Origin: a virus
DNA length: 64,000 nucleotides
Virus record (IMG/VR): IMGVR_UViG_3300045988_151351
Location: 128,001-192,000 of that record
Strand: one strand, 5' to 3'
Part shown: positions 1 through 64,000 of the stretch, one piece after another
Numbering within the stretch: the first letter of the stretch is position 1
Layout of the letters: each line of letters starts with the position of its first letter
Position numbers and translations under genes: made by a program
Notes under the pieces: model-generated
Database searches by the model: none
Told to the model about the DNA's origin: nothing
What the model saw: the letters and a program-made list of their open reading frames with translations, nothing else

Positions 1-583
1 ATTTATTATTCATTTCCTTAAAATCTTCTAAGAATTTTTCATCATCTATTGGATTAGGCATTCTCTTTTTATCTTCTTCGCCATGGACAGCTCTATAAAG
101 TAGACAAACTCCTGCATATTCATCACCCATATTAATAGTCCCAGTAGTACTAAACTCTAATTTACCAATACCACTTAAGTGAGTATCATTTAACATACTA
201 TCTAATTCTGCGGCAATACGATATGGTCTTAACTAATAATCTTTTAATCGCCATTGATCATAATGACAAATAATATCAAATTCAATAGTATTATCTCTAA
301 ACTAAGGATTGGTGGGATTAGTAATAAAATTATCAAATTTAATAACAAGATAATTTAAAACACTATTATCAACTTTTAGCTTAGGAACTATTCTTATATT
401 CTTTTTAAATAATTCATACATTTGGTCATCTGTTAAGTTAGGCTTTTCCATAGCATCTGGAGTTGTATAATATAATAATCGTTTTAAACGTTCATTATCA
501 CATATTCTATCAACTATAATACCCATATCTTTTTCAATAGATAAAAAACTTGACTTTGGTATTTTTACTCCATCAATTTTCAT
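1..583 (-). CDS. hypothetical virion-module protein (N-terminal part; 3' end lies beyond the window). In-frame TAG codons at about 299 and 239 are read through.
   Basis: ORF 302..583 continues in the same frame through two TAGs to the window edge. RBS AGGAGATAAAGG sits upstream of the ATG at 583. Confidence 0.5.
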
Positions 584-598
584 ACACCTTTATCTCCT

Positions 599-1663
599 TT
601 AAAACAACGATTCAACTATAATAGTTTTTTTATAATTACCATAAGTTAAATCAAATTGTCCGCTAAATCCTGCATCCCAATATATTGTAATTTCACGAGG
701 GTCAAAATCATCTATTTTATATTTAACAGGAAAGCGTTTATCTATATTCCATTCTCCAGCTTCCCATCCGGCAAAATTATATTTATATTCTTTTTTAGGA
801 TGAATAAAAGTTTCTCCCTAAATTTCATATAAATCAGATTTTTCATTTGGATCTATGGGTTTAGTAATTAATGCTCCAACGATACCATTTTCTACATCAT
901 CTTCAATTTCATTAGCATAATATTCTGTAGCATTAACTTCTAATATTCCCGGCATACTAATAGAATCTATCGCTTCAACTCGCCAACATATTTTATCAGC
1001 GCCTTCTATATATGGAGAAAGATAAAATTTACTATAACGTTTAAAATATTTCAAAGTTTCTTCTGTCTTAGGCATTAATATATTTAAACTAAAATTGGGC
1101 TTATCTACGCTAGTGTTGTGCTTTTGGAAAAAATCAATTTTAGTTTCAACAGGACCACGAATAGCCGCGTAAGTACTTTGCTCATTACCTTCTTCATCTT
1201 GCCAATTAATTTCAAAAGAACATTTACGTATATCTCCTCTAAAATATGCAAGTTCAGTTAAATCTTGTAAATAAATAAGCCAATAAGTATGAGTGCCACG
1301 CCACTCAAATACATCCCCTGGTTTAAAATTATATTCATATCCAACAGAAAGAATCTTGTCATCATAATCTTGCTTTAATTTATTAGGATTTATTAAAGCA
1401 CGTATAGGTTTTTTTAATGTTGCTTTTGGTTTTATAATCTCAGCAGCCTAATATGAATTCCATACTGCCTAATCTAAACTTCTGCGCTTAGACATTATCA
1501 TACGTTCTTGCTGGAGATTACCGCCCATCTAACGCAATCTTGCCGCAGTATCATTCACGCCTTCAACAGAGTTACCTTCATACGGACGTTTATCATATGT
1601 ACCTAATCGTCCCTGTATCAATCTAAATGGATGCTAATTACTATAATCATATCCTGATGCCAT
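599..1663 (-). CDS. hypothetical structural protein, about 354 aa, with at least 5 in-frame TAG codons
   Basis: Hand translation from the ATG at 1663 runs in one frame through ORF 818..1075 to a TAA at 599-601. Every break in the ORF track is a TAG. Confidence 0.55.
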
Positions 1664-1865
1664 GATTTATTTCCTATAATAAATTAATAGCTTCAAAAAC
1701 AGTTTTACGATAGAAATTAAATTCTGTCTCCTGATTATCTAAGCCTTCAAGTTTTCCTAAAAGCTATAAGAAAAGGGGTTCAGTACTAAAAATTACACTG
1801 AACCCCACGATTTCATTTATGACAGTTTCTAGCTATTTTTGCCAATCTTCATCATGTTCACGCAT
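1647..1865 (-). CDS. small hypothetical protein, about 72 aa, with TAG codons
   Basis: ATG at 1865, TGA at 1647-1649. Contains the perfect hairpin at 1776-1808. Confidence 0.3.
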
Positions 1866-1932
1866 TGGAATTAATTTCCATAATTGGTTGGTTAAGCGTA
1901 AACAATTTTTTTCAATACTCTCTTTTGGAATA

Positions 1933-2514
1933 TTAATACCATAACTTGTATTCATCAGGTTTAAACATATCCCATGTAGATTCATATTCGCCTTTATCAT
2001 TTAAACGTCTACGTTTATAAAGACGTTGTAGATGATGAGACTATCTTTGACAATCAGATAATAAACTTAATAGTTTAGACAAATGATTTGCCTATGAAGT
2101 AAATTTAAAATCTGAACCACTATATTTCATTCGAGTATTTTCAATAGAAGTGACTTGACGTTGTACCCAACCGCACATCATCAAAATAGCTAAAATATTA
2201 ATTTCTTCTTCAGTTAAATCACATCCAAAAGTAGAACGATCTACTAGGACTTGAGGTTTTTCGCCCGGTTCTGGAATAGTTCCCCATAAAGTACCTACAA
2301 TAAAATCATTTGAGGTTGTACTGTCTTCATCAACAGTATCAACTTGAATTGTATAATCATATAGATTTTTACGCGGAAATTCAAATCCCGGTATAGCATC
2401 TATAATCAAATTCTATAAATCTTTTAAAGTATCCTGTGGCGTTAATTCCAGATACATATCATCAGTAACTTTTCCTAGAAAGCGATTATATACAGTAGAG
2501 AATAGTGTTCCCAT
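1933..2514 (-). CDS. hypothetical protein, about 193 aa, with 2 read-through TAG codons
   Basis: ATG at 2514 with RBS GGGAGCG. In frame through ORF 2092..2409 and on to a TAA at 1933-1935. Confidence 0.5.
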
Positions 2515-2534
2515 TTAATCGCTCCCTTCTTTTA

Positions 2535-3128
2535 TTACTTAGAAGTTTCCGCGGTTTTATTAATTACTTTATAGTTATTGCCTGTAGTGCGGCGGCCTTG
2601 AGGAGCTCCTTCCTGAACAACTCTTCTCTTATTAGGACTTACATCCTCTAAGATACTAGAAGGTTCATCGCTCTCTTTACTAGCTTTATCATTGGCAATA
2701 GCTTTATCTACATCAAATCCAGTCTTTTTCAAAAGTGCTTCACGCTTTTTGAAATCTGTAATAGGAAGAGATACAGAAAGACTCTTAATTAAATCAATAA
2801 CTCCAATTGGAGCAAAATCAAGAGCATCCAAGAAAGCATCAAGTGAACCATTTAAGATTAAATCGCGGACTTGAGCTTCTGACATATTATATTCAGGCTC
2901 TCTGTGAATATTTAAATCCTGAGTAACTTCTTCTTCCATAATCTGTAAAAAATTAGCAATTAACTCACGGCCACCGGGCTGATAAGTTAACTTCTCTAAC
3001 TCACTAAAAGGAATTCTTTTAGTTTCACCAGGGGCAAATGTTCTACGCAAATTACTTTCTGGAATTGAATAGACAACAACACTAGAACTTCTATTCTTAA
3101 CATTATACATATCAGTTTGATTAATCAT
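2535..3128 (-). CDS. hypothetical head-associated protein, 197 aa
   Basis: Intact ORF directly downstream of the MCP terminator. No TAG. Confidence 0.5.
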   Translation of the reverse strand: MINQTDMYNVKNRSSSVVVYSIPESNLRRTFAPGETKRIPFSELEKLTYQPGGRELIANFLQIMEEEVTQDLNIHREPEYNMSEAQVRDLILNGSLDAFLDALDFAPIGVIDLIKSLSVSLPITDFKKREALLKKTGFDVDKAIANDKASKESDEPSSILEDVSPNKRRVVQEGAPQGRRTTGNNYKVINKTAETSK

Positions 3129-3166
3129 TTTTTTTATCTCCTTTATCTCTTAAAAAAAATAATGGG

Positions 3167-3200
3167 GAGAGGGAGCTATTTCCCTCTCCCCATTAGGTAA
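3167..3200 (-). terminator. rho-independent terminator after the major capsid gene
   Basis: Minus-strand read gives GGGGAGAGGGA-loop-TCCCTCTCCCC followed by a T8 run. Confidence 0.8.
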
Positions 3201-3220
3201 ATTTATATATTAATTATAAA

Positions 3221-4327
3221 TTAGATTGTACCATCTAATCTACCATCATAGGTAACGACCTTACCAGTAACACCATCATAATTCCAAGTAGCCATCTGAC
3301 CAACAAGTGAAGTATCACAGTAAGCGCAAATGTTGTTAGCAAGCATGCAAACAACGCCGACTTTCTTATAAACCTGAATTTCACGAGAACGGTCTTTATT
3401 GGGGAATTCATCAACAATAGTGCCACCCTCAAAAGCGATCTTAACAGGTTTACCATCAGCACCGGTAGGAATAACCCAAGCATAACCAGGATCAATTACC
3501 TTACGGCTATTGGTTTCATCCTCAAAGCCCTGCTCAAGAATAATAACCTTTGTGCCCTTATAAGTAGCAAGACGGCCAGTATTCCAAAGCTCAGTCTTCA
3601 TAGCCTCAGTGTATCTCCAAGCTTCCTGTGGAATCATCTTTACAGCAAACTCATAAGTGCAGTAAATAGTAGGAGTACCATAAGCAGAAGCAATGGTAAT
3701 TAACTTATCCATAGCAGCCTCATCAAAACCAGCAACAGCAACGCGGTTGGCAGGTGGTAACTGATTGATAGAAGAAACAAGAGCACGAGCAACTTCTTTG
3801 TAAATAAGTTCATCCATGCCTTCCATAATGATCTTAGTCATTTCAGCGAAATCAACACGACCATCAAGGAATTCTTCGAAACCGATCTGAGCGGCTCCGC
3901 CGATAGCAGATGTACGAACTTCGAAGCATTCGTTCTCAGCAGGTCCAAGCTTAAATACTTCATAAATACCAGCAAGACCGACACGAGTTACGAACTGCTT
4001 TGCACGAGCACGAGTCTGTAATGGACGACGGAAAATTGGCTTATCGCCCTGAGCAAAGGTCTTAACTTCAGCAAACTGATCATATTGCTGAATAACTTTC
4101 TTTGGAAGAACTTCATCAAGAGTTTCTTCAATCATAGAGAAAATCTGATTCTTATTATCACGATAAAGTGAATAAGTACCAGCTAATTCATTCATTTCTG
4201 CGCGAAGAGTGTCATTCAAAGCCTCATAACTTAGATTCTGACCGCCAAAACTATAAGCAGTAGGAGCAGAAGGATCAGCTTTAGCAACAGTCTTCATTAA
4301 AGCGACTAAATTTTTTCTATCTAACAT
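3221..4327 (-). CDS. major capsid protein (HK97-fold-like), 368 aa
   Basis: Size, position after the scaffold gene, higher-GC codon usage, strong terminator and TAG-free ORF. The sequence composition is typical of phage capsid-family proteins. Confidence 0.7.
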   Translation of the reverse strand: MLDRKNLVALMKTVAKADPSAPTAYSFGGQNLSYEALNDTLRAEMNELAGTYSLYRDNKNQIFSMIEETLDEVLPKKVIQQYDQFAEVKTFAQGDKPIFRRPLQTRARAKQFVTRVGLAGIYEVFKLGPAENECFEVRTSAIGGAAQIGFEEFLDGRVDFAEMTKIIMEGMDELIYKEVARALVSSINQLPPANRVAVAGFDEAAMDKLITIASAYGTPTIYCTYEFAVKMIPQEAWRYTEAMKTELWNTGRLATYKGTKVIILEQGFEDETNSRKVIDPGYAWVIPTGADGKPVKIAFEGGTIVDEFPNKDRSREIQVYKKVGVVCMLANNICAYCDTSLVGQMATWNYDGVTGKVVTYDGRLDGTI

Positions 4328-4344
4328 TGTTCTTCTCTCCTTTC

Positions 4345-5256
4345 TTACTTAATACGCATAATCTTAGCGCCTTTTTGTCCATCAGGCATGGTATAAAGCT
4401 TAACAACCTGCCAACTCATAGTAGCGTCGCCAGTCTTACTTAAAATACCAGTAGCATCAGGAGAAAGGATATCGCCAATCTCTAAGGTTTCTTCATTAAT
4501 CATATTGGTAGTATAAATATCACCAACATTAGTCTTGAAAACACGAGGAACCATAGCAGTACCTGGATTCATGCGCTTTTCACGATAAATACCTAACTTA
4601 TGATATGGATCATTGGTCCAATTCATTTCATAGATATCGCGAACATTAGTAGTAACATCATCAAAAGTACGAACAAAGTCAATAGTTACTTTACCATCAA
4701 CAAGAGTATATTCAGTACCATTATAAGTAAATTTATTATCAGTAACGTCATAATCCTGACCATCAATAGTAACAGTCTTACCATCACGATTGATATCAAC
4801 ATTCATCTTCCAAGTGTAAGAACTCTTACCATTAGCATCAACGCCATTGAGCCACTTGGTCTGATATTCCTGCTCAGGATGTTCCCAATCTAATGGGCTA
4901 TATACACGAGCCTGATAATCATCCTTTAACATTGCGAATTCGCAATCCCACTGCTTTGTACCATCAAGATGGTTACGATATAACTTAATTTCATTATATA
5001 CTAACATCCACTCGCCAGCGCCAGTGAAATTAACTTCGCCAATGCCATTGCCATTAGCAGCATAATCATACTTTACATATTGACCGTTTTCAAGAATCTC
5101 AATCTCTGGGTTAGCAGGCAACTGAGCATAAATTTGAGCGGTTCTCTGTGCTGACAGGTGATTAGGTTCGACCTGACCGTAACCAAACTCAACATACTTA
5201 GCCTGAGACTTGTGATACTTTGGGTCCATATTTCGAGTCCAAAAGTCTTTAAACAT
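4345..5256 (-). CDS. hypothetical capsid-associated protein, 303 aa; possibly decoration or head fibre
   Basis: Intact TAG-free ORF between the scaffold and MCP genes. Confidence 0.4.
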   Translation of the reverse strand: MFKDFWTRNMDPKYHKSQAKYVEFGYGQVEPNHLSAQRTAQIYAQLPANPEIEILENGQYVKYDYAANGNGIGEVNFTGAGEWMLVYNEIKLYRNHLDGTKQWDCEFAMLKDDYQARVYSPLDWEHPEQEYQTKWLNGVDANGKSSYTWKMNVDINRDGKTVTIDGQDYDVTDNKFTYNGTEYTLVDGKVTIDFVRTFDDVTTNVRDIYEMNWTNDPYHKLGIYREKRMNPGTAMVPRVFKTNVGDIYTTNMINEETLEIGDILSPDATGILSKTGDATMSWQVVKLYTMPDGQKGAKIMRIK

Positions 5257-5279
5257 TTAGTATGTCCTCCTTATTAAAT

Positions 5280-6905
5280 TTATCTAGCGTTTTCATATTT
5301 TAACGCAGCTTTTACCCAAGCCGGAATAGATTCATCATCATCTTCACCATTATTTAAATTATAAGTAGTAGGCTTGGTTTCTTTATTTTCGTCAAGGTCG
5401 AAACTTACCTTGTTGCGAACGCAAATAACAGAAAGCTTTGCTTCAATATCATCAACAGAATACTTATCAATATTATCAATGACATCTTTCTTATCATCAT
5501 CAGATAACATATAGAATTGAGCAATCATAGCTTCCTTATCTTTCTTCTCAGAAGCAAGTTTGAACTTTCTTAAAGGTTCAATTTCTTCTATTAAAGAATT
5601 CTTTTCTGTTTCTAAAGCGGCATATTTAGATTTTAATTCTTCATATTCAGTTTTTAGTTCTTGATATTCAGTAACATCTTCTAATGAATATTTTTTCTTC
5701 TTTTTCTTATCTTCATCATCTTTGTTACCATCATCGTCAGAGTTATTACCCTTACCATCAAGATCATCTTTTTTACCGATTGGCTTTTTATCTTTGCCAT
5801 CTTCTGAATTATCAGAATTATTATCTTTGCCCTCTGATTTATTATCAGAATTAGACTTATTATCTTTATTATTTTTGTCCTCTTCTTCTGCCTTTTTTTT
5901 AGAAGCATATTCAGTTTCATAAGTCTTTACTGCCTCTAAAGAAAATTGAGGTTCAGCGGCAGGAATATAAGACTCAGTTACTTCAATTAAAGCATCAGCA
6001 GGAACAAAACCATCGGTTTCATTTAAAGAGAAATTTAAACGATAATACTTATTATCAGCACGATTCTGTAAGACAGCAAACTTCTGAGAATCCTCTTCAC
6101 ATACACCTTCGATAGCATATACTGAACTATAAGCATTGTCAGCATCAGGATATTTCTCTAAAATGTAATTCCATAAAGAGTTCCATAAGTTATCGCCAAT
6201 TTCAACAGCATATCTTGAAAACACTTTGGTTCCTCCTTCTTTAATTAATTCTTTTAAATCATTCATCATGGAGAATAGCTTTTGCTTAAAATCTTCATCG
6301 AATGTAAGACTAAATTTTGTGATTTGAGAGCCTTCAAAACAAGGTTCACATTCTTCTCCCAAAATACAAAGCTTAGAGATTATTGCCTCATTTATAATAA
6401 AAAACTTTGGCTTACCATTATCATCTTTTGTCCATGTTGCATTTAAAGTTTTTTCATCTAATTCCATGGATTGATTATTACCTTGGTCTATAATGCGCTG
6501 GCACTCAGGATACTAGCCAGTCCAAATATAACCCTCAGTCATTAGATATTCATGCTCTACGCCATCATCATTAAATTTCTAGAACCACGCACGCGCACCT
6601 AAATCAACAAAACCATAAGGCTTAGTTGTATCTTTGATTTTAAATTGGCCATTTGAAATATCAATTACACGATTATGCTCTTCAAAATCTCCAATAGCAT
6701 CATTGTAATAACCAACAATTGGGCTGCCTGGTAAGGAATTAGCCATCTAACGCGCAACTTCTTTGGTAATAATACTACCATTGCGGTTAGGCGTATCTCC
6801 GACATAGCACACTTTAATCTAACACTTAGAAATTAAAGGATTAACAGGAGTAATATTTATAAACTCACAAGGTGTTTCTAATTTAATACTTGTATGTTTC
6901 ATCAT
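5280..6905 (-). CDS. prohead maturation/scaffold fusion protein, about 541 aa; its N-terminal third is only joined in frame by reading through two TAG codons
   Basis: The ATG at 6905 (RBS AAGGAGG) is in frame with ORF 5280..6467. The C-terminal half is low-complexity K/D/E/N-rich with coiled-coil character, typical of scaffold proteins. Confidence 0.55.
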
Positions 6906-6912
6906 GTCCTCC

Positions 6913-8598
6913 TTAACTCATTGATTCTTTATTCTAAATAGTTTTACTACTCTTTTCATCATCGGCTTTCTCAGGTCGTCCGGCCGTACCAGAACCGCTT
7001 GATGTTTTAGCCGTTGTTGTAGTAATATTTGTTTTCTATGTTCCTGAATTATTTTGAGTTTCAGGTTTATTTCCTGAACCTTTTAAGCCCAAAATATCTT
7101 CACTACCCATAGTAGAACTCATAAGAGGAGGTATCATAACTTCACTCAAATGTAGTACATCATTCTCAAAATGAGCAGCATTTAGAATGAAACTCTAAGA
7201 ATGGCCTAAAGCAATTTGAGGAAGCATTTTAGAGTATCCTAACTACACGTGTTCTTTATATAATTTTGCTAAATTCTAATAATTATATTGTGTAGTTTCA
7301 AGCATATAAAATTTAAAATTATATTTACGATTATTACTATTACGCATAGCAGTAATTCTATTAAAGAAAATATTATATTGTAATAAAAGATTGCGCAAAT
7401 ATGATTCATCATTTAATACTGATTTTTCTAATGCCATATTACCATCAGTATTAAACAAATTCTATGAAATACCTAAAGAATTATAAACAGTACGTTCTAC
7501 TTTAGATAAGTCATCAGTAGTTGTTGTAGTATTCTTATCTGCTAAATCAATAGTATCAACATCAGTAAATGTGGTTAAAACATCAACACCAATACATCTA
7601 CGCAACATCTCTACAGCATTATGGTGAATATCTAATGCTTCATCAGAGTCAAAAATTAAATCCCCATTTTTATCCATAGGAAGTTTTTGAACAATAATTT
7701 TTAACAACTTCTACATTTGCTTTTTACGGTCTAGTTCTTGTGCAGCATCTAAATCCATAATAGCAGGAATAGAACTTACAAATAATGGCATATCATCATT
7801 ATTTAAATTAAACTTTACACAATACTGTGGATCTAACATATACCAACATCCAATAGTAGAATCTCTGCCTAATACATTTTCTTCTGATTTTAATTTACCT
7901 TGCTTATATAACATATAACCTTTGGCAAATTCATCAGGGAATAATTTCAATACTTTCATACGATAATTAATATCGTGGAAAGTATCAAAGAACTTCATAT
8001 TAAATTCAATAACAGGCATATTATCTACGCTGTATCGAGAACGGCAGAAGTTAACTGGTAAATCTTGTAAAATTAAATGGTCATTAGAAGGAACTATATA
8101 TCCATAATAACAACCTTCTTTAATTACTTTTAAAGATATATCTCCACAAATTTTCTTAATATAACTACTATCTAAATAATTAAGAGTCTTTGAAAAATCT
8201 TTTAATATCTTTTCCTCTTTGACTGTATCATCTAGAATCTCTGGCGCGACATACCAATCATATCTATATAAAAAAGCAAAATAATTACAAGTGCGCTCAT
8301 ATATACCATTTATGCTATAAAATAAATTAGATATACGACGCAGTTCCGGTAAATCATGATCAGCTATTGCTTTATAAATATCTGCTTTACAAAAGCCTTT
8401 TTGACCCGGAATATTTATTTTTTGATAATAATCTAAATCTAAAATAACATCATTTAGATTTCTATTACCAACCTTAACTTTTTTATATTCATTAGCAATC
8501 GCTGTTCTATATTCTCGATAAGAATCAGTCATATCAAATCCTTTATTATGAATTTCTTCAGCACGGACTTGATTTAGGGTTTGAGTTTGATTATCCAA
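6913..8598 (-). CDS. portal protein (putative), about 561 aa; three ORF-track fragments joined by TAG read-through, plus a further extension
   Basis: ORFs 7711..8598, 7462..7707 and 7276..7458 are in one frame and separated only by TAG. TTG start with RBS GGAGGTGG. Sits between TerL and the scaffold gene. Confidence 0.55.
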
Positions 8599-8610
8599 AA
8601 TTCCACCTCC

Positions 8611-10713
8611 TTAATAACCTGCTAGTTTCATTATATAATCATAAGAAATAAGGTTTTCATCAGTGTATGGAATTTCTATTAATTTAAAATCGTGCAAAGC
8701 ACAAAAACGTCTCTTTTGATTATCATTATATTGCTATTGGTATAAACCGCGTTTACCACCAAATTTAGAACTTGCTTCATAATGTTGCTTACCCTAATAC
8801 TCAATAATAAAATCAATTTTACCATCATCATCAAATATAACGAAATCAAATCTCAAAGGACGTCCATTTGGACTTCTTAAATCTGGAAATATATATTCCA
8901 TTTTAAAAGGAAGTCCAGCCTCTTCTAAGATTTCTTCTATTTTTATTTCTCCTCTAGAAGCACGCATAAACTTCCCTCCTTAATTCATAAAGCACCAATC
9001 AGATGCTTTAAATTTCTTACGTTTTTTCTTTTTATCTTCTTCGAGTTTTAAATAATATAATCCATATTCAAAAGCTGAAAATTTATCCTTTCGGATACCA
9101 CGATTTGCCTACTTCAGGATAATATTTACTCCTTCAGTTTCTTCACGCAAATTCATCATTTCTTCTTTTAATATGGAAGTTAAAGTAAATGGTTTTAAAT
9201 ATTCTGCCCTCTATTCAGGTTTCATGGATTGACCAACTTTAGTTGCCATTAATTTATTTTTAGCAATACGTTCATCAATAAGGAATTTTACTTTTCCAGA
9301 AGATAACTATGAACGCGCAATAGCATGTGCTTCAGTATTAATTGGCGCATTTGCTTTCAAAATATACATAGCATCTAGTTCAGTAACAGAAGTCTTATAC
9401 TTTTTGTAGTATCCTTCTTCGTCATTAGAAACACCGAAATCAGGATAAGTTTCATTAGTATCAGGATCAGTCTAAGATTTAACCATATAGTCAATTAAAC
9501 CAATACCCATACCATTACCATCTATTACAATCTGACGAGCATTATATTTATAATATAATTTCTTTAATTTGATAGCCTAATCTTCAAAATGTTCATCTGA
9601 TAAAGTATAAATATTAACAAGGCTCTTTGTAGCACCACCTTGAGATTGTGGAGTTACTTTAAATACACAAATAACAGAATCACAACCTTTACGTCCAATA
9701 TCAGCCGCTAAAACATAAAAAGCTAATTTAGAAGAACGACCACTTGCTTCATATTCAGGCTAATTTAAAATGCGGTTTCTATCAAAAATTTCCGCATTGA
9801 AAAATGCGTCTTCAACAGTACCAGACCATTTACTTTCATATTCACGATCAAAAGAACTTTCATTGAAAGTACCATCTTGTTTTAAATCTTGAATAAATGA
9901 TTTAGATTGTAAGCCAATTAATACAGGAATACGCCAAGTACCACCCATTATAATTGATTGCTCAGGTTTAATAATTTCCCAGACAAGCAACTGGATTAGC
10001 TTATCATAAGGGAATGTATTTTTATATCCAGCAGTAGTAATATAAATCTAAGATTTATTAAGAGTTTCTTCATCATGTGTTGTGCCATCCATACACATAC
10101 GAGAAATGTTCATCGTAGGAATAATAACCTAAGATAAAATATCTCCATCAACACCAACGCATTCCTCAATAAGGCCGCCATGACGACGTTTACCACGAGA
10201 AGATTCTCTAGCAGCGATATTATCAAAATAAGAACCATTCTTAAATACATATTTAACATAGTCCTTACCTTCAAGGGTTTGACCACGCCGCCAATCAATT
10301 TCTTTATTAAATGCTGGAATCAATGTACAAATTTCTTGTACTTTTTCTTTAACAATACCTGCGGCCTGTTCCTTACCACCAGAAGTAATAAATAATTTAC
10401 AACGAGGATAAAGAATAGCTCGGCACATAAGTACCATCATAGATAAAAATGATTTAGAATACGCACGAGGAAATACTGCATAGATATATTTATGCCGCAT
10501 TGCCGCACGCAAAAAGATTCTCTAATAAAAGAATAAATGAAAGTGTTGGGGACCGCCATCTGGTCCCGCCATGAAATCAATAAATAAATCAGGATATTCT
10601 CTCCAGAAGGCAATATACTTACGTGCTTCTGGAATAATACCTCTTAATCGCTCTTCTGAAAGACCGACTTTGCGGCGAGAGGCACTTAAATCTAGTAAGT
10701 CTTTAAGTGCCAT
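8611..10713 (-). CDS. terL: terminase large subunit, about 700 aa, with multiple read-through TAG codons
   Basis: Deviant Walker A PRAYSKS(F) in fragment 10129..10512, with a nuclease-like C-terminal half. Fragments 10522..10713, 10129..10512 and 9760..9990 share one frame, separated by TAG. Confidence 0.7.
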
Positions 10714-11888: not shown

Positions 11889-11932
11889 AAAATTTCTCCT
11901 TTCATTAGATTATTAGTAATTCATAGAAAGGA

Positions 11933-50464: not shown

Positions 50465-50536
50465 TGCCTTATGGTGTAATGGAAACACGCCGCCCAGTAG
50501 AGGGCGGAGTCTTTGGTTCGAATCCAAATGAGGTAA
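50465..50536 (+). tRNA. tRNA-like gene with an 8-nt anticodon loop CAGTAGAG
   Basis: D stem GTGT/ACAC. Anticodon stem CCGCC/GGCGG. T arm TTTGG-TTCGAAT-CCAAA. Confidence 0.3.
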
Positions 50537-51804: not shown

Positions 51805-51878
51805 TGCGGTGGTCTTCTAACGGTAGGATACTGGGCTCATAACCCGGAGACGCGGTTCGATTCCGCCGACCGCAACCA
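51805..51878 (+). tRNA. tRNA-Met(CAT)
   Basis: Anticodon stem CTGGG/CCCGG, loop CTCATAA. T arm CGCGG-TTCGATT-CCGCC. Confidence 0.5.
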
Positions 51879-54076: not shown

Positions 54077-54142
54077 TTTTATAAAAAATTTATGATATAA
54101 TATATATGTAAGGTTGAGAGATAAATAATCTCTCCCTTATAT

Positions 54143-54228
54143 GCCGGTGTGGTGGAATGGTAGACACAAGGGACTTAAAATCCCTCGGTGGCAGCACTGT
54201 GCGGGTTCGAGTCCCGCCACCGGCACCA
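54143..54228 (+). tRNA. tRNA-Leu(TAA), long variable arm
   Basis: Acceptor GCCGGTG/CACCGGC. Anticodon stem AGGGA/TCCCT, loop CTTAAAA. CCA. Confidence 0.6.
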
Positions 54229-54789: not shown

Positions 54790-55668
54790 ATGGAGTATAC
54801 TGGATATTTTGTCAAATTTAATAATTTTGCTGCGCACCCCTCTGGAACAGGTCGTTTACATATTGATGTTTTAAGTAAATATTCTCAAGTACTTTGGGGA
54901 CAATGGCGAAATGGTATAAATCTTTTGAATGAAAAAATTCGTAAAGAAATGAATGATGTTGCACCTTTTAAGTTTTATGCTTTAGATAAATCTGTAGCTT
55001 TATTAAAAATGAATGTGACTCGAGTACTTACTCGTGAAGAAGTTATTGCAGAAAAGTTAGAATATCTTATTCCAGATTATTATAATATTGATACACCATG
55101 TTCAGCATATTATCTTATTGATAAAATTGAAATTCTACCCGTTGAATCTGCACTTAAAATAATTAATATCAATACTAAGAAGTCAATCTATGATTCAGCT
55201 CAAGTGAATAGTACGACTCCTTGGAGAGTATGTGAAATTGATAATGATTTAGGAATAGAAAATATTGTTATTCCTAGTGTAACAACTAAATCTGTTAAAT
55301 TTAATCCGCCTGTCTCTTCTGAAAATATATCTAATATTATTTCTCATAAGTCTAAAAATGAAACCTATTGTATTTATCAATATTATTCTAAAACTATGAA
55401 GAAAAGTTATATTGGCTTAACTAATGATATTAATAGGCGTAAAAAAGAACATGAAAGTCCTAGCAATTGGACGCGAGAAAAGAAAAAATATCTTTATACA
55501 GCAATGCAACTTATGGGATTAGATGATTTTGAATTCCATATTCTGCATGATAATTTGTCTGAGGAAGATGCTCATTACTGGGAAGCAAAAGAAATTGAAA
55601 ATCATCATTCTTATTTCCCGGACGGATTCAATGAAAGAAATGAATCCCGATTCTTAAAAAATATTTGA
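54790..55668 (+). CDS. protein with a C-terminal GIY-YIG nuclease domain, 292 aa
   Basis: YCIYQYYSKTMKKSYIGLTNDINRRKKEHES is the GIY-YIG motif. Confidence 0.5.
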   Translation: MEYTGYFVKFNNFAAHPSGTGRLHIDVLSKYSQVLWGQWRNGINLLNEKIRKEMNDVAPFKFYALDKSVALLKMNVTRVLTREEVIAEKLEYLIPDYYNIDTPCSAYYLIDKIEILPVESALKIININTKKSIYDSAQVNSTTPWRVCEIDNDLGIENIVIPSVTTKSVKFNPPVSSENISNIISHKSKNETYCIYQYYSKTMKKSYIGLTNDINRRKKEHESPSNWTREKKKYLYTAMQLMGLDDFEFHILHDNLSEEDAHYWEAKEIENHHSYFPDGFNERNESRFLKNI

Positions 55669-55735
55669 TTTTTTAAAAAATTTATGATATAATATATATG
55701 TAAGGTTGAGAGATAAATAATCTCTCTCTTATATG

Positions 55736-56020
55736 CCGGATTAAACAATAGTAGCTAACGATAGTTGAATAGACGGGTCGGGGCTAACATAGAAAGGTTA
55801 GCAGGTAGTGCGGCGGTAGGTAACAAATCCGCAAGTCGAAATGAGTCGGGAAAACCGAATGATACGGCTTAGATGTTTTCCTCATTTGAGGTTTGGATGG
55901 AGATTTTAGGCGAAGGATAACAACCTTTGACTGCCATCTTGTAAAGCGACCATGAAACCGGGTCATAGCTACCATGCTATTGTTTATTTTTAATGTGCGG
56001 GTTTAAGTCCCACCACTAGT
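55736..56020 (+). ncRNA. structured non-coding RNA candidate, about 285 nt, expressed from a duplicate of the tRNA-Leu(TAA) promoter and leader
   Basis: Promoter and leader at 55660-55745 are near-identical to 54075-54152. First 10 nt TATATGCCGG are shared with the tRNA. No ORF. Ends with a T-arm-like GCGGGTTTAAGTCCCAC. Confidence 0.35.
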
Positions 56021-56117: not shown

Positions 56118-56193
56118 TTCAGTTGGTAGAACGTCTGATTGTGGCTCAGAAGGTCGTGGATTCAATTTCCACCAGTCACCCCATATGCTCTCG
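56118..56193 (+). tRNA. tRNA-His(GTG)
   Basis: Acceptor GTGGCTG/CAGTCAC. Anticodon stem TCTGA/TCAGA, loop TTGTGGC. Confidence 0.55.
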
Positions 56194-56196
56194 TAG

Positions 56197-56335
56197 CTCA
56201 ATCGGTAAGAGCCGGCGACTTATCCAAGATTAGTTTAAATGGTAAAATAGTCTATGCGCAAGAAAGATGTAAGTTCAAATCTAACATCTTGGGCCAAATC
56301 GCCAGATGTGGGTTCAAGTCCCGACGGGAGCACCA
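56197..56335 (+). tRNA. 139-nt tRNA with an insertion of about 79 nt in the anticodon loop; the insertion is itself tRNA-like
   Basis: Outer acceptor GCTCTCG/CGGGAGC, D stem GCTC/GAGC, anticodon stem GGCGA...TCGCC. The insert is bounded by CCAAGAT/ATCTTGG (7/7 bp) with D-arm GTTT-AAATGGTA-AAA and T-arm GTAAG-TTCAAAT-CTAAC. Confidence 0.4.
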
Positions 56336-58325: not shown

Positions 58326-58415
58326 ATTAAAAGATTAATTACGAGAAAAATAAGTAAAAATTTATTTGATTTTTATAAAAATAAATGATATAATATTTAT
58401 AGAAAATAAAGATAT

Positions 58416-58492
58416 GCGAGATTAGCGCAGCTGGTTAGCGCATCTGCCTTACAAGCAGGAGGTCACTGGTTCGAGTCCAGTATTTCGCACCA
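58416..58492 (+). tRNA. tRNA-Val(TAC)
   Basis: Acceptor GCGAGAT/ATTTCGC. Anticodon stem TCTGC/GCAGG, loop CTTACAA. Confidence 0.55.
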
Positions 58493-58539: not shown

Positions 58540-58650
58540 GCATACAGCAAAAACACAAATTTTGTGTATTATCGGTTCAAGTCCGATTCCGCCGTCCTTT
58601 GGCAGATAGTTTAATGGTTAAACAACAAAAAAAAAATGCGTCTTGGTGAT
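58540..58650 (+). ncRNA. second candidate permuted or split tRNA: T-arm ATCGG-TTCAAGT-CCGAT plus acceptor TCCGCCG, then 5' acceptor TGGCAGA, TA, D-arm GTTT-AATGGTTA-AAAC, then ACAAA pairing the upstream TTTGT
   Basis: Acceptor pairing 6/7. D stem perfect. Anticodon-stem halves ACAAA/TTTGT complementary. Confidence 0.3.
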
Positions 58651-58652: not shown

Positions 58653-58727
58653 TGAGGGGTAGCATAGCGGCAAATGCGCCGGTCTCTAAAACCGGATAAG
58701 TGGGGTCGGCACCCACCCCCTCCGCCA
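58653..58727 (+). tRNA. amber suppressor tRNA-Sup(CTA), 75 nt, canonical cloverleaf, with glutamine-like identity
   Basis: D stem GCAT/ATGC. Anticodon stem CCGGT/ACCGG, loop CTCTAAA (U33, C34 U35 A36, A37). T arm GTGGG-GTCGGCA-CCCAC. Acceptor (T)GAGGGG/CCCCTCC with unpaired 1:72, G73 and CCA. Confidence 0.7.
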
Positions 58728-59470
58728 TAAGTAAAGCAATATGTTCAAAGCATTGATAAGACTTTACTTCGATAGGACGTAGGATTAGAAGTGTCCAGCG
58801 TTTAAAGATTGATTTGCGATCGCGAGGTAAATCTTTGGTCAAAAGACACACTATCGGGGTTTGAAGATAAACCTTAAAATCTTCGCCATATGTTGAACTC
58901 TTTAATAGTGACATAATATAACCTTTGGGATATATTTATTTCACATCAACAGTGTATTTTATTCCTAATAGAGTATAAGAATAACGTTCCAATACGAAAC
59001 ATTGGTGAATAATAGGATATAATTTAATTAATGAAGATGTTTGGATCATATGTTTGTTAAAGTAATCATCGGTGAAATGGCAGTAAGATTTCCTATTTAA
59101 ATCTAACCAAACTGAATACTAAAATCGAACCGAGAAAAGACTCTGTGAAATAAATATTGTAAATTCTGATGGATAGCTTAATGCTTGATAGGAATGGGTT
59201 GGACAGCATAACGCAACATATGTGTTAGCGGTTATGGAGTAAGAATTTACAATATTTAAAGTAATAGAGTCTTTTTGTTTTATATAGAAAGTACGGCAAA
59301 GCTGCTCCGGCCGGTGTCAATCGCACATATCGTAAAACCAAATAAAAATAAGCCCTTAGAAATTTTTGTTACAATTTCTAAAGGCTTATTTTTTTAGGCC
59401 AGAAAAAGACCTATTATCTCATTTATTTTTTAAAAAAATATAGGAAAATATTATTAAAGGGGGCTAAACA

Positions 59471-59769: not shown

Positions 59770-60993
59770 ATGAATTCAAAATTCTATTTCAAGCGTGGTA
59801 AAGCCGCGTCTTGGACGAAATAGAATATATTATTAGGTCCTGGCGAGCCTGGTTTTGAATTAGACACTGGTAAATTAAAAGTTGGCAATGGTGTTGATAA
59901 ATGGAATGATTTACCTTATATAGTAAATAAAGATACATTACCTGATGAAATTGTTTATTATATTGGTAAGCAAGATACTCTTCCAGAAGAAGGAACAGAT
60001 GGTAGCATTTGTATTGTTGGTGAAGATATTTATATTCGCGCCAATGATAAATGGACGAAATTAAATACTACTGCTAAAGGTGAAATTGAAGTTATTAAAA
60101 TTAAAGGTAATAATGATGGTAGTTTAGAAATTGATGGTAAAAAGTATGATACTATCCAAGAGGCACTAAAAAATGTAACAAATGCCGAAGTCGCACTACC
60201 AACTGAATTAACAGAAAATCTTACCATTTCCGCAGGTCAAACTATTACTTTAGATTTAAATGGTACTAATACTGTTACTGATTAGGTCAATCCTCTTCAA
60301 ATTGCTTATAACGGTTCTCTTATTATACAGGGAGATGGCACTGTTGAATGTAATAAGAATGGCGCAGCAAGTATAGAGAATAATGGCACCTTAAAAATTC
60401 TTAATGGTGTCATCTCTCGATCTATTGACGAAAAAGGTAATGGATACTATGTAGTAGTTAATCATGGATATACAACTATTGATGGAGGAATTTTCACATC
60501 TCCCGGTGGTATGTCGAGTTTAATTGAAAATGGTTATTATAATTATAATTCCAATCTTGCTTCTACTGGATATGTTGAAGGACAAAATGTTCAAAGTCCA
60601 AAATTAACTATTAATAATGGATTATTTATAAATGATTATACTACAATTAAAAATGATGATAATGGTGAAACATTTATAAATAACGGTCAATTTTATGGTA
60701 TGATTTACCACGTTGGACGTACTCTTGATATTAAAGATGGATATTTTAATGCTAGTGATGGCTATGAAAATATTCAAGTAAAGAAATTAAGTCAAAATTT
60801 AAATTGCGCTGATTGTTATATTAGTGGCGGCACTTTTGAGACTAATGGTTCTGTTAATATTACAGGGGCAGGTAATCCAACAATTATTATTACTGGTGGA
60901 AAATTTAATAAAAAAGTTCCTGATAAATATATCGGGAAAGGTTATACTTAGACCTTAATTGATGGTTATTATACTATAACTAAGGAGGGATAA
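59770..60993 (+). CDS. tail fibre or receptor-binding protein, about 407 aa, 3 TAG codons
   Basis: N-terminal FKRGKAASWT.N..LG.GEPGFELDTGKLKVGNGVDKWNDLPY motif is a conserved tail-fibre N-terminal block. Frame continues through TAGs into ORF 60511..60951. Confidence 0.55.
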
Positions 60994-60995
60994 TA

Positions 60996-61364
60996 TTGGC
61001 TTTTAATGTTGTTTATGCTGATAAAAATAAAATTAAAAGTAGTATTACACAAAATATTATTCCTAAAGAAAGTTTAATCTTAACTGCTTAGGATGATAAG
61101 CAATCAGAATCATACTATTATGATGATGAAGGTAATTTAAAATTTATTACCAAAAAAACTACTTTTAATTCTAAAATTGAAGCAAGAACTTGGATTGCTA
61201 GATACGGCAATTATCAAGGAGAAATAATTTCAATTTATTAGAATAATTCTTACGTTCCGTTTTTAGTAAATAATAATAATGAGTTAGTTCCTCTTCAAAC
61301 TGGAGAAGAAGAAACTGCTGATTTTAATATTATTGATGGCGGAGCGGCCAATACTAATTATTAA
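60996..61364 (+). CDS. hypothetical tail-associated protein, about 122 aa, 2 TAG codons, TTG start
   Basis: Hand translation. Confidence 0.3.
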
Positions 61365-61381
61365 TTAGGAGGAAACAATTT

Positions 61382-62602
61382 ATGGCTGAAAAGACATTAA
61401 AAACTCGTATTTTATTACGCAATGACAGTGCCGCAAATTGGGAAGCCAATAAAACAACTGTCCTGAAAAAAGGCGAAATTGGCATTGAAATTGATACTAA
61501 TAAAATGAAAATTGGTGATGGTGTAACTGCTTATGGTAACTTAAAGTACTTTGGCGGTGAAGCTGCACTTAATTTTGAAGTATTTCCAAAAGGCGAAACA
61601 ACTGATATTGAAGCGATTAACGCGGCTGTTGGTGATACTGAGATTCACAATGGTGATACTGCTATTGTAAAACGTGATATTGCTGGTGGTAAATCTTCCT
61701 ATACCGCATATGTTTATGATGGCGAATGGAAGGCTATGGATGGCAATTATCGTGCTGATAATGTTTATTTTGATGAAGATCTAATTTATACTGCTAATAT
61801 TGGCGTAAAGACTGTTCCTAGTTCTGGTTCTGGTACTATTGATGCTGCTGGTAAGAATGTTGAAGAAGTTCTTAAATCTATTCTCGCCGCTGAAAAGAAT
61901 CCTAGTAATACAAAACCTTCTGTTTCTTTTAGTACTCAAAGTGGTTTTGGTACTTTCGAGATTGGTACTAAGAAGAATTTGACTTATACTGCTGCTCTAT
62001 CTGCTGGTAGTTATACCTACGGTCCTGCTACAGGTATTACTGCTCAGTCTTGGGAAGTTAGTTGTACTGGTGTTGAAGGTTCTAAGGATACTGCTACTGG
62101 CACTTTTGAAAACGTAATTGCTGAATCTACGGCTAAGAAGATTACTGCCAAGGCTAACTATAATGAAGGTGCTATTCCTAAGACTAATCTTGGTAATCCT
62201 TATCCTAATGCTAAAATCGCAGCAGGGAGTGCTTCTAAAGATTCTAATTCTTTGATTGGTGTTCGTCATATGTTCTATGGTGTTCTTAAATCTGATGCCG
62301 TTCTTGACAGTAGTGTTATTCGTAGATTAAATCATGAAGCTGCTGATAAAAAGACTATCACTACTTTTGGAGCAGGTGCTGGAGCAGTTAAAGTTGTCAT
62401 TGCTTGTCCTGCTGGATATAATGTAACTAAGGTTCTTATGCCTAGTGCTATGAATGCTGATGCTACTGCTAACTTTGTAAAACAAGCTGGCACTGTTAAT
62501 GTTGAAGGTGCTGAGGGCTACACCGCAGTTCCTTATACTATTTGGATGTATAAACCAGCTTCAATTGATGCCAGCGAAACTTATGCTGTCACAATTGGTT
62601 AA
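61382..62602 (+). CDS. tail fibre protein, 406 aa, TAG-free, with the same N-terminal motif
   Basis: TRILLRNDSAANWEANKTTVLKKGEIGIEIDTNKMKIGDGVTAYGNLKY. Confidence 0.6.
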   Translation: MAEKTLKTRILLRNDSAANWEANKTTVLKKGEIGIEIDTNKMKIGDGVTAYGNLKYFGGEAALNFEVFPKGETTDIEAINAAVGDTEIHNGDTAIVKRDIAGGKSSYTAYVYDGEWKAMDGNYRADNVYFDEDLIYTANIGVKTVPSSGSGTIDAAGKNVEEVLKSILAAEKNPSNTKPSVSFSTQSGFGTFEIGTKKNLTYTAALSAGSYTYGPATGITAQSWEVSCTGVEGSKDTATGTFENVIAESTAKKITAKANYNEGAIPKTNLGNPYPNAKIAAGSASKDSNSLIGVRHMFYGVLKSDAVLDSSVIRRLNHEAADKKTITTFGAGAGAVKVVIACPAGYNVTKVLMPSAMNADATANFVKQAGTVNVEGAEGYTAVPYTIWMYKPASIDASETYAVTIG

Positions 62603-62626
62603 TTTATAAAGGAGGAATAAAATAAT

Positions 62627-64000
62627 ATGGCTACTATTTATGATAAGAATGCCGCTTATATGGCTCTTCCTATGAATATCAAGCGTGGTAATCCAATCCC
62701 ACTTGATACTACTGCTGTATGGGATAATAAAGCTGAATTAGAAGCATATGCTAAGTCTGGTGCCACTTCTTATGTCGGTCAAATTTTAACATTATTCGCT
62801 GATGGTGTTGCTGAAGCTTATTTAATTAGTAATGAAGCAGGCGATCTTGTTAAATTAGCTCAAACTTCTGGCACTGGTGATGTTAGTACTGATATTGCTA
62901 ATTTAAATAAGAAAATTAATTCTCTCGTAACTGAAATTGGTAAAGCTTCTACTGAGACTGAAAGTGCTAGTGGTTTATATGCTTTAATTGAAGCTGCCAA
63001 AAAGCAAGCAGATAAGGGTGTTGCTGATGCTAAAGCTGCTGATGATAAAGCTCAAAGCGCTCAAAATGATCTTGATGCTCTTGAAGCTGTTGTTGGTGCT
63101 GACGATACTGCTGGACTTCGTAAGCGCATTAAAGCTAATGAAGACGCTATCGGTGTTTTAAATGGTACTGGCGAGGGTTCTGTTGATAAAGCGGTTAAAG
63201 ACGCCATTGATGATTTTGCTAACAAAGTCACTGACGATGGTACTATTAATACTTTTAAAGAATTAGTTGATTGGGTTGCAGAACATCCTGAAGTCGCGCA
63301 AGGTTTAACTACTGAAATTAATGCTTTAAAGACGATTCTTGCAGGATTTGGTACTGCTGAAGGCGAAACCGCTACTGTTAAAAAATATGTAGATGATGCG
63401 GTTGCTGCTCTTAAGATCGGTGATTATGCTAAAGCTGCTGATCTAACGGCTCTTGCTGAACGTGTTAGCACTCTTGAAGGAAAACCAGCAGCTTCTATTA
63501 CTCAAGAATAGATTGATGCTTGGACCGCAAAGCAAGATGCTGGCGATTTTGTTGAAAAGTCTGCTTATAATACTAAAGTAAAAGCTTTGGAGGAAGCAGA
63601 TGCAGCTAATGCAACTGCTATTGCTGGTGTAAAAACAACTGCTGAAGCTGCTGTAAAAGCTAATGATGCCATTACTGCCGGAACTGCGACTAAGATTACT
63701 TATGATGCTAAAGGTCTTGTTACCAGAGGTGAATCTCTTACTGTTGATGACCTTCCTGAGCTTCCTCAAAGTAAGATTGCAGGATTGGGTGATGCTTTAA
63801 ACGCTAAGCAAGATAACCTTGTATTTGATGGAAATTACTCTGCAAGTAATAAAGTCGCAACTGTTGCTACTGTTAATACTGCAAGAGATAATTTAATTCA
63901 TACTCTTGGCGGCGATGATGGCGTTACTGATATTGATACTGAAAATAGTGATACTATCCATGGCGCTAAAATATATGCTAAAGCTCGTGCTGATGCCGCT
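62627..64000 (+). CDS. tail fibre protein, Ala-rich coiled-coil shaft; continues beyond the window; at least 1 TAG codon at about 63512
   Basis: ORF 62627..63511 continues in frame through a TAG to the window end. Confidence 0.5.

Follow-up and report, generated by a model that had tools for sequence, protein, structure and literature searches.

Gene organization of the window

The analysed window, a stretch of 64,000 nucleotides, derives from a phage of ~200 kb that is related to SPbeta, EF1 and phAss-1 and probably infects a Clostridia-type host of the Bacillota. It begins with a minus-strand operon of 13 virion and packaging genes (2-12997), here called the late block, whose counterparts in relatives match the SPbeta-named Pfam families YonG_N, YonD_N, YonB, YomW, YomV and YomU. 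The first gene of the operon (11933-12997, minus strand) belongs to a PHROGs family named 'sigma factor' and its product combines an HTH resembling sigma region 4 with a Cys cluster at the C-terminal end; a PDB sequence search with this gene gave nothing significant. Upstream of it a perfect TTGACA-17-TATAAT promoter (13050-13022) was found, which is conserved in relatives, has the host-type consensus and is the only recognisable promoter of the operon. On the same strand are the large terminase gene terL (8980-10713, 577 aa), the portal gene (6913-8532, 539 aa), a gene for a scaffold-like protein (5280-6905; YonD_N-type relative, with the Pfam match obtained on an orthologue) and a trio of capsid genes (2535-5256). 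The trio consists of a probable HK97-fold major capsid protein (MCP) gene (3221-4327) and both its neighbours. The MCP match was weak (E = 5e-4), a PDB sequence search with this protein gave nothing significant, and a strong terminator (3195-3160) lies 3' of the gene.

The early block (16102-30464, plus strand) contains ~36 small genes with a GC content of 40-45% and a GC-rich codon usage of their own. Nearly every gene is preceded by a consensus host sigma-A-type promoter, and 30 of the 32 perfect extended -10 host-type promoters of the window (TTGACA-N14-TGnTAYAAT) are located here (16.5-30.1 kb; 0 expected by chance). A repeated 5'UTR, AGAAAGGAATTGAT, precedes the ATG in about 16 of the genes. 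Host-takeover early modules of the SPO1 type, as reportedly described by Stewart et al. in 1998, are said to consist of densely packed tiny genes with near-consensus sigma-A promoters and strong ribosome-binding sites. The early block resembles them in all three features; the likeness is one of architecture.

A cluster of three minus-strand genes follows (31521-32891), for which PHROGs and Pfam searches gave no informative function. Its gene 32238-32891 encodes a weak HTH, adjoins iteron-like repeats (32169-33293) and gave nothing significant in a PDB sequence search. The middle block (33391-48529, plus strand) comprises 24 genes with late-like, AT-rich codon usage, including a chorismate mutase type II gene (36665-36943) and gene 42324-44225, for whose protein PHROGs and Pfam yielded no informative function. 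A second promoter-like repeat, TTGATTTT..TGATATAAT, occurs in 17 copies over 33.3-58.4 kb and covers both the middle genes and the adjacent tRNA island. An IMG/VR scan with one middle-gene protein gave no match; with another it gave a single near-identical contig, and a metagenome scan yielded three close relatives. The island holds 25-27 tRNA genes, the last of which is a suppressor tRNA (58653-58727, plus strand), and a GIY-YIG homing-endonuclease-like gene (48898-49542, plus strand). Tail-fibre-like genes with Mtd_N domains (59770-64000, plus strand) complete the window.

At the nucleotide level, neither the late nor the early block matched any INPHARED record in megablast. At the protein level, the packaging and head module is homologous to and syntenic with that of the SPbeta/EF1/phAss-1-like siphophages. 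The 13 late genes are 27-50% identical to genes of Enterococcus phage H1, which are likewise arranged around terL, and TerL itself shares 44% identity with phAss-1 and 51-52% with the Enterococcus phages H1 and EF1. The hosts of the relatives in culture are Enterococcus, Bacillus and Geobacillus; related terL genes are mostly present in Bacillota MAG bins, where they may have been misassigned.

TAG is a sense codon

The preliminary description had proposed that TAG is read as a sense codon and that genes end only at TAA and TGA. Both statements hold. With TAA and TGA as the only stops, 22 credible genes (~23% of the genes in the window) contain one to nine in-frame TAG codons, and the 90 complete genes end with TAA (66) or TGA (24) and never with TAG, which accounts for 6 of 57 stops in two standard-code relatives. 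Re-calling the genes with TAG as a sense codon, as had been suggested, raised the coding density of the late block from 0.69 (code 11) to 0.97.

Several profile matches bridge TAG codons. The portal, with seven in-frame TAGs, is matched by phrog_2739 over residues 14-499 (E = 8e-71). The scaffold-like protein is matched by phrog_3313 over residues 9-527, and all four TAGs of its gene lie within the first 131 codons. In the GIY-YIG gene (TAG at codons 34 and 99) the match to residues 3-90 spans codon 34, and in the chorismate mutase gene TAG codon 16, which is conserved in the relative L012, falls within the CM_2 domain (residues 13-87, E = 7e-12). TAG is thus present in conserved genes, and read-through restores full-length homologous proteins.

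If TAG were still a stop, the interrupted genes would have to be pseudogenes, assembly errors or truly split genes. This is in keeping with the fragmented ORFs obtained with code 11, and with the separate PHROGs families kept for terL fragments (phrog_15503 and phrog_24618). However, the same full-length proteins are encoded on hundreds of other contigs, which reach 200 kb in length, the frame is preserved through every TAG, Gln codons occupy the TAG positions in relatives and no gene ends with TAG, which leaves this explanation with a negligible chance.

TAG is read as glutamine

Comparisons at the level of codons, made with both recoded and standard-code relatives, gave strong support to the proposed assignment of TAG to Gln. 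The terL gene contains nine TAGs (codons 64, 195, 222, 318, 379, 414, 469, 501 and 535), and these sites were compared codon by codon in 24 orthologues, in which they are occupied by CAA/CAG (113 cells), TAG (41) and other codons (48). Gln codons thus make up 113 of the 161 non-TAG cells. Among 60 diverse homologues, codon 64 is Gln in 58 and codon 379 in 54. In a likelihood test over 97 sites Gln was favoured over the next residue, Glu, by 69 log units, and TAG sites were conserved as Gln nearly as often as CAA/CAG sites (35% vs 39%). Opposite the TAGs of the window, a 75%-identical recoded relative has TAG 16 times, CAA 14 times, CAG once and other codons 14 times, and the cultured, standard-code Enterococcus phage H1 has Gln at 14 of 36 sites. 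Between lineages that differ in TAG content TAG is exchanged chiefly with CAA/CAG, and this was also observed for the TAGs of the middle block.

Another residue at TAG (Pyl, Glu, Lys, Tyr, Trp, Leu or Ser) is very improbable. Certain TAG sites, terL codons 195 and 501 among them, do lie opposite Glu or Lys, and ARAGORN labels the suppressor tRNA as Pyl, as it does any tRNA with a CUA anticodon. Against this, Gln leads all other residues in likelihood by 69 log units or more, TAG is exchanged mainly with CAA/CAG across lineages unequal in TAG, and the tRNA does not have the architecture of tRNA-Pyl: a 6-bp anticodon stem, a 3-nt variable loop and a small D-loop without GG are replaced by a 5-bp stem, a 4-nt loop and an 8-nt D-loop with GG.

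It would also be conceivable that the host itself decodes TAG as Gln and that the phage merely matches its host. This is extremely improbable: ~60 early and middle genes are wholly TAG-free, the terL genes of close relatives contain between 0 and 14 TAGs, some relatives having neither TAG nor the tRNA in the stretches fetched, and the hosts of cultured relatives are standard-code Bacillota. TAG is read as Gln by the tRNA(CUA) that the phage itself encodes, and termination occurs at TAA and TGA only.

Features of the suppressor tRNA

The tRNA with anticodon CUA at 58653-58727 was confirmed by ARAGORN (anticodon CTA) and by the Rfam tRNA model (45.6 bits). It had been called a textbook tRNA, which it is not quite, having an atypical T-loop (GUCGGCA) and a variable loop of 4 nt; the anticodon loop is CUCUAAA. 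The U1:C72 mismatch, G73 and U35 reported earlier are present and are kept in relatives. The tRNA is retained in L005 and L006 with a compensatory change in the T-stem, and in both relatives it occurs together with in-frame TAG, whereas L007 and L008 have neither within the 21 kb fetched.

The identity set of E. coli GlnRS comprises a weak U1:A72 pair, G73, G2:C71, G3:C70, G10, U35, G36, A37 and U38. The suppressor tRNA shares U1 (mismatched with C72), G73, G2:C71, G10, U35 and A37 with this set. It lacks G3:C70 (an A:U pair instead), G36 (necessarily A) and U38 (A instead), and the missing G3:C70 and U38 count, together with the odd T-loop, against the overall explanation given below. In E. 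coli, supE, the glnV amber suppressor tRNA-Gln(CUA), competes with RF1 for TAG and places Gln there. The phage tRNA resembles supE in the CUA anticodon, U35, A37, G73, G2:C71, G10 and the weak 1:72 position, and differs from it in the U1:C72 mismatch, A3:U70 and A38. U1:C72, G73 and U35 only suggest a Gln identity; it is the alignments that establish the assignment.

The suppressor tRNA would presumably be charged via the Gln pathway of the host; that many Bacillota make Gln-tRNA via transamidation is a point against this explanation. The larger ORFs scanned in the 64-kb window of the ~200-kb genome included neither a release factor gene nor one for an aminoacyl-tRNA synthetase, in a scan that covered few small ORFs. 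As sources of the suppressor, tRNA-Gln(UUG) of the phage and tRNA-Gln(CUG) of a relative were considered; the alignment showed only moderate similarity, and the suppressor is not recognisably derived from either. The 620-nt stretch 3' of the tRNA gave no Rfam match.

TAG is distributed in three tiers

TAG had been described as a sense codon of late, middle and island genes that is avoided in the early block. The avoidance was confirmed: between 16.05 and 30.6 kb only 2 TAGs were counted in 3537 codons, both in dubious ORFs of 50 aa, so that the early genes have no credible in-frame TAG, and none stops at TAG. The use of TAG in late genes also held, with 43 TAGs in 4241 codons, spread over 10 of the 13 genes and amounting to 27% of the Gln+TAG codons (early vs late, Fisher p = 1e-9). 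The first gene of the operon carries three of them (codons 97, 115 and 149). For the middle and island genes the claim was too broad. The middle block (33.3-48.6 kb) is TAG-poor: only 4 of its 24 genes contain TAG, and the block has 8 TAGs in 4565 codons (p = 1e-7 vs the late block); its TAG share of 6.6% is fourfold lower than the 27% of the late block despite an equally AT-rich composition. In the tRNA island the GIY-YIG gene is the only credible TAG-bearing gene.

The highest density was found in the minus-strand cluster at 31521-32891, which contains 12 of the 14 TAGs of the 30.6-33.3 kb block, eight of them in gene 32238-32891. In this block TAG represents 74% of the Gln+TAG codons. The tail-fibre-like genes contain three TAGs (59770-60993), none (61382-62602) and one (62627-64000), and three of these TAGs are conserved in L005. 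The capsid trio is TAG-free within the late operon, as reported earlier for the MCP and as also observed in the relative L001. Three tiers can thus be distinguished: no TAG in early genes, little in middle genes with none in the capsid trio, whose products are in highest demand, and heavy use (27-74% of Gln positions) in the remaining virion and packaging genes and the minus-strand cluster.

TAG is also scarce outside the reading frame in the early block, where TAG counts on the plus strand fall to 2 per 2 kb. Off-frame TAGs numbered 47, against 67.5 in synonymous shuffles. Since TAA is depleted equally, this scarcity is not specific to TAG and mostly reflects codon usage and a general avoidance of TA.

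A possible role of the suppressor in timing

Together, these data are very probably best explained by a ~200-kb phage related to SPbeta, EF1 and phAss-1 in which TAG is decoded as Gln, its use falls into three tiers and late proteins would be timed by the suppressor. The timing mechanism is inferred from promoter-like motifs: the suppressor tRNA is located in the island under the promoter-like repeat that is shared with the TAG-poor middle genes, and one copy of this repeat (58353-58416) immediately precedes tRNA-Val and the suppressor itself. Proteins made before or alongside the suppressor would have to be readable by the unmodified host machinery, and TAG-bearing late proteins would reach full length only after the suppressor has built up and can compete with the RF1 of the host. 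The genes with the highest output would avoid the inefficient TAG codon. The temporal switch suggested in the preliminary description would be compatible with the sequence. Two observations limit this model. The promoter of the late operon is itself a perfect host-type consensus, and no TAG gate applies to the capsid trio, which means that any gate must be incomplete.

Alternatively, TAG could be read as Gln throughout infection, its uneven spread resulting from codon adaptation and selection on translation; genes that are highly expressed or adapted to the host would shun a slow and leaky codon that is tolerated in genes for low-copy proteins. We regard this as rather unlikely, although the TAG-free capsid trio argues for it, being part of the late operon, GC-richer and biased towards the codons that highly expressed genes typically prefer (CGT, GCT, ACT, CAG), as do the GC-rich usage of the early genes and the repeat ahead of the suppressor, which is no distinct 'late' signal. 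However, the middle genes are as AT-rich as the late ones and still use far less TAG, and early and middle genes never stop at TAG, which suggests selection for unambiguous decoding and not for speed alone.

Comparison with known recoded phages

Delay of late proteins by recoding, with suppressor tRNAs, has been proposed for crAss-like, Lak and 'gemstone' clades (Borges et al., 10.1101/2021.08.26.457843; Nat Microbiol 2022), and mass spectrometry has proven TAG to be read as Gln in crAss-like phages (PMC9523058). Like the phages of Borges et al., the phage studied here concentrates TAG in structural genes, encodes a tRNA(CUA), has early genes readable in the standard code, is depleted of TAG as a stop and has a low GC content. 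With ~200 kb and ~23% recoded genes it resembles their Sapphire clade (201 ± 22 kb, 26%) in these two figures. In contrast to those phages, recoding is not conspicuous in its lysis genes (no TAG occurs in the SleB-like hydrolase gene at 14590-15168), the capsid trio is free of TAG and a release factor gene was not seen among the larger ORFs of the window.

Babkin et al. (2023, PMC10607447) described phAss-1, the proposed Phassvirus, and the EF1-PMBT10 group, whose terL, portal and tail genes use TAG for Gln. The window agrees with this group in its related terL, in the use of TAG as Gln in the same genes, in a suppressor tRNA(CUA) among many tRNAs, in the lack of a dedicated synthetase (here among the larger ORFs of the window) and in a presumed Clostridia host. 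It differs from phAss-1 (136 kb, three suppressor genes) in genome size and in having one suppressor in the window.

Recoding of this kind, its assignment to Gln and the model for late genes had all been published before (Borges 2021/22, Peters 2022, Babkin 2023). The window is a clear further example of TAG recoding in gut phages and leaves the knowledge of phage recoding unchanged. All features of code 15 that were examined were found: read-through, Gln opposite TAG, a tRNA(CUA), no TAG terminator and a late/structural bias. For annotation this matters because code 11 shatters about a quarter of the genes, terminase and portal included. In this Bacillota phage the tiers are legible jointly from promoter-like motifs, codon usage and TAG density, which makes the hypothesis of recoding as a timer testable in this lineage, and standard-code relatives in culture (Enterococcus phages H1 and EF1, Geobacillus E3) offer a route to experiments.

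A TAG cluster in gene 42324-44225

A possible exception to TAG never terminating was observed in the middle-block gene 42324-44225, in which TAG-TCT-TAG-TCT-TAG (43950-43964) and a further TAG (44004-44006) lie in frame. The preliminary description would have been contradicted by TAGs at genuine C-termini or domain boundaries, and this is the one gene in which such a position was found. The cluster separates a core of 542 aa from a conserved C-terminal extension of ~75 aa, and the orthologue in L005 terminates with TAA exactly at the cluster. Although indels occur, L009, L011 and L012 all preserve the reading frame of the extension, and L012 lacks an internal start codon.

It is conceivable, though rather unlikely, that TAG acts as a conditional stop as well as a Gln codon. 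A short 42324-44225 protein, ending at the 2-4 TAGs located where the orthologue stops, would then be made before the suppressor builds up and the extended isoform afterwards. As the late operon lies under a perfect, conserved host-type promoter, the TAGs of its leading genes, and not transcription, could likewise time virion assembly.

Layout of the window and affinities of the phage

Genes in the AT-rich phage DNA of the window were called with TAA and TGA as the only stops. On the minus strand, a virion and packaging operon of 13 genes (late operon, 2-12997) is followed by a short gene group on the plus strand (13.1-16 kb), an early block of ∼36 very small genes (16.1-30.5 kb, plus strand), a minus-strand cluster (31-33.3 kb) and a 'middle' block (33.4-48.5 kb, plus strand). 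Beyond these lie a tRNA island (48.6-58.7 kb), in which 25 tRNAs were identified by ARAGORN and two more by Rfam, and tail-fibre-like genes from 59.5 kb. The early block is GC-richer (40-45%) than the rest of the window (30-35%).

The structural genes are akin to those of SPbeta-like phages, and genes of the relatives match the Pfam families YonG_N, YonD_N, YonB, YomW, YomV and YomU_Tube. The terL protein is 51-52% identical to that of the cultured, standard-code Enterococcus phages H1 and EF1, 48% to that of Geobacillus virus E3 and 44% to that of the recoded gut phage phAss-1. Identical or near-identical proteins are encoded on hundreds of contigs from metagenomes, the longest ∼200 kb. A megablast of the late and early blocks against INPHARED gave no match, and nothing was found when one middle-gene protein was searched against IMG/VR. 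Likewise, PDB sequence searches gave nothing significant for the probable MCP, the first gene of the late operon (11933-12997, minus strand) or gene 32238-32891, and the label 'sigma factor' for gene 11933-12997 was not confirmed in searches. Clues to the host, namely a SpoVT/AbrB-type regulator, a SleB-like hydrolase, DUF5052 and the mostly Bacillota assignment of MAG bins with related terL genes (such binning is unreliable), point to Bacillota.

TAG is used as a sense codon

In-frame TAG could be identified in 22 credible genes: 10 of the 13 late-operon genes (among them terL with nine, portal with seven, a scaffold-like gene with four and the first gene with three), two genes at 14-16 kb, three at 31.5-32.9 kb, four in the middle block, one GIY-YIG gene in the tRNA island and two tail-fibre-like genes. 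Profile matches cross the TAGs uninterrupted, and reading TAG as sense raises the coding density of the late block from 0.69 to 0.97. The stop codons of the window comprise 66 TAA, 24 TGA and no TAG; in two standard-code relatives, TAG accounts for 6 of 57 stops. Both proposals of the preliminary description, that TAG is a sense codon and that genes terminate with TAA or TGA, are thus borne out.

TAG is read as glutamine

Compared with a recoded relative of 75% nucleotide identity, TAG in the window stands opposite TAG 16 times, CAA 14 times, CAG once and other codons 14 times. In the alignment to phage H1, Gln is found at 14 of 36 TAG sites. When the same alignments were used in a likelihood comparison (97 sites), Gln ranked first, 69 log units ahead of the runner-up Glu. 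TAG sites conserve Gln about as well as ordinary CAA/CAG sites. Among diverse terL homologues, codon 64, the glutamine of the adenine-binding YQ motif of terminases, is Gln in 58 of 60 and codon 379 in 54 of 60. At the DNA level, the nine terL TAG sites of the window were compared across 24 orthologous genes, where 113 cells are occupied by CAA/CAG, 41 by TAG and 48 by other codons; TAG-to-CAA/CAG exchanges likewise occur in middle-block genes. These results agree with the earlier suggestion that TAG is probably read as Gln. Since Gln aligns with the TAG sites, the opposite case, in which TAG would mark genuine C-termini or domain boundaries or show no amino-acid preference, does not hold, with the exception of gene 42324-44225 (plus strand).

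The number of TAGs per terL gene ranges from 0 to 14 across the 24 orthologues, and does so among lineages (L013-L033) with 60-81% protein identity to the terL of the window, which indicates that recoded sites are gained and lost frequently.

TAG and TGA recoding has been described across many gut phage clades, with suppressor tRNAs, a scarcity of TAG stops and recoding concentrated in genes for structural proteins and lysis (Borges et al., 10.1101/2021.08.26.457843). In genome size and recoded fraction, the phage resembles the Sapphire clade of that study, whose genomes measure about 200 kb and have 26% of their genes recoded. For crAss-like phages, TAG was identified as Gln by mass spectrometry (Peters et al., PMC9523058), and phAss-1, which shares a broad group with EF1, reads TAG as Gln with suppressor tRNAs (Babkin et al., PMC10607447). 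Given these reports, the recoding seen here is a further example of an already described phenomenon, and the preliminary observation of it was correct.

The suppressor tRNA and the tRNA island

The final tRNA of the island (58653-58727, plus strand) carries the anticodon CUA, as described previously, and folds into a cloverleaf with the anticodon loop CUCUAAA. Its U1:C72 mismatch, G73, G2:C71, G10 and anticodon loop are kept in two relatives, with a compensatory T-stem change in one of them. The tRNA-Gln identity elements proposed before, U1:C72, G73 and U35, are therefore conserved, but the tRNA matches the E. coli identity set incompletely. With GUCGGCA, its T-loop departs from the usual form, and few tRNAs of the island score as low in Rfam (45.6 bits). 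Assignment as tRNA-Pyl was rejected, as the architecture differs. Both tRNA(CUA) and in-frame TAG are present in relatives L005 and L006; in L007 and L008, neither was found within the 21 kb fetched. The island of L007 ends with a tRNA-Gln(CUG) (12056-12131) at the position that the suppressor occupies in recoded relatives, and the two tRNAs are only moderately similar in sequence. The island of L005, a close relative, holds a putative tRNA with the anticodon UUA, which would read TAA (8693-8765, called by ARAGORN).

Several odd tRNA-like genes were observed in the window: 50465-50536 has an 8-nt anticodon loop, in which ARAGORN reads a four-base anticodon GUAG; 48611-48682 is a tRNA-Phe(AAA); 56187-56332 is a 146-nt Rfam tRNA match with an insertion of ∼70 nt; 51806-51874 was detected by Rfam only; and 58570-58598, just upstream of the suppressor, is a tRNA 3' remnant. 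A RAGATH-33 RNA (55754-55866, 137.9 bits) also lies within the island, just downstream of a 76-nt repeat (55664-55739; second copy at 54072-54147) that includes the promoter-like element described below. Directly 3' of the suppressor, ∼620 nt without an ORF (58728-59392) end in a bidirectional terminator. Its predicted folding is more stable than that of shuffled sequence (z = -4.3). The region is conserved in L005 and, in part, also in L006, had no Rfam match, and may be a novel structured RNA.

Distribution of TAG and probable order of expression

The TAG share, calculated per region as TAG/(Gln+TAG) codons, is 27% in the late operon and at 13.1-16 kb, 74% in the minus-strand block at 30.6-33.3 kb, 7% in the tRNA island, 6.6% in the middle block and 2% in the early block, where both TAGs lie in dubious ORFs. 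Avoidance of TAG in the early block could thus be confirmed, but the middle block, previously counted among the TAG users, belongs with its 6.6% to a TAG-poor zone of ∼30 kb. This cannot be put down to composition, as middle genes match late genes in AT-richness. Depletion of TAG in all frames of the early block was rejected as a TAG-specific signal, since it follows from codon usage and the avoidance of TA. Within the TAG-rich late operon, the probable MCP, already noted as TAG-free, and both its neighbours (2535-5256) lack TAG. They are GC-richer, prefer CAG and use codons as highly expressed genes typically do, and the pattern is conserved in relative L001.

The TAG-densest gene (32238-32891, minus strand) contains eight TAGs and a weak HTH. 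Beside it, at 32169-33293, an iteron-like sequence (AAACTATGAAAAATTACCTAAT) is directly repeated six or seven times; together, gene and repeats could represent a replication origin with its initiator.

Perfect TTGACA-N14-TGnTAYAAT promoters are concentrated at 16.5-30.1 kb (30 of the 32 in the window, 0 expected by chance). This array (16525-30035) is of sigma-A type with extended -10 and has roughly one promoter per small gene; in ∼16 early genes, the 5'UTR and ribosome-binding site form a nearly identical cassette, AGAAAGGAATTGAT(A)ATG. Another promoter-like repeat, TTGATTTT..TGATATAAT, or in fuller form TTGATTTT(T)ATAAAAAAT..TGATATAATATATAT, occurs in 17 copies at 33.3-58.4 kb (33312-58416) and heads middle genes and tRNA clusters, one copy directly preceding tRNA-Val and the suppressor. 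For the late operon, a single perfect TTGACA-17-TATAAT promoter was identified (13050-13022); it is conserved in relatives, among them phage H1, which is not recoded. A strong terminator lies after the MCP gene (3195-3160). These signals support an order, deduced from sequence only, in which early genes would be expressed first, middle genes with the tRNAs next and late genes last. The temporal switch of the preliminary description, in which later genes would need the phage suppressor, matches the timing model proposed by Borges et al. (10.1101/2021.08.26.457843).

A TAG cluster in gene 42324-44225

In this middle-block gene, three TAGs fall within five codons (TAG-TCT-TAG-TCT-TAG, 43950-43964), and a further TAG follows 14 codons past the cluster (44004). 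The L005 orthologue has a TAA stop exactly at the cluster position, and the cluster lies at a C-terminus or domain boundary of the protein. Downstream of it, ∼75 codons are conserved in frame in a further three relatives, although in-frame indels occur there, and in L012 no start codon precedes the conserved extension. Therefore, readthrough of the cluster occurs at least sometimes, and the region 43950-44225 may act as a conditional stop or as a switch between isoforms.
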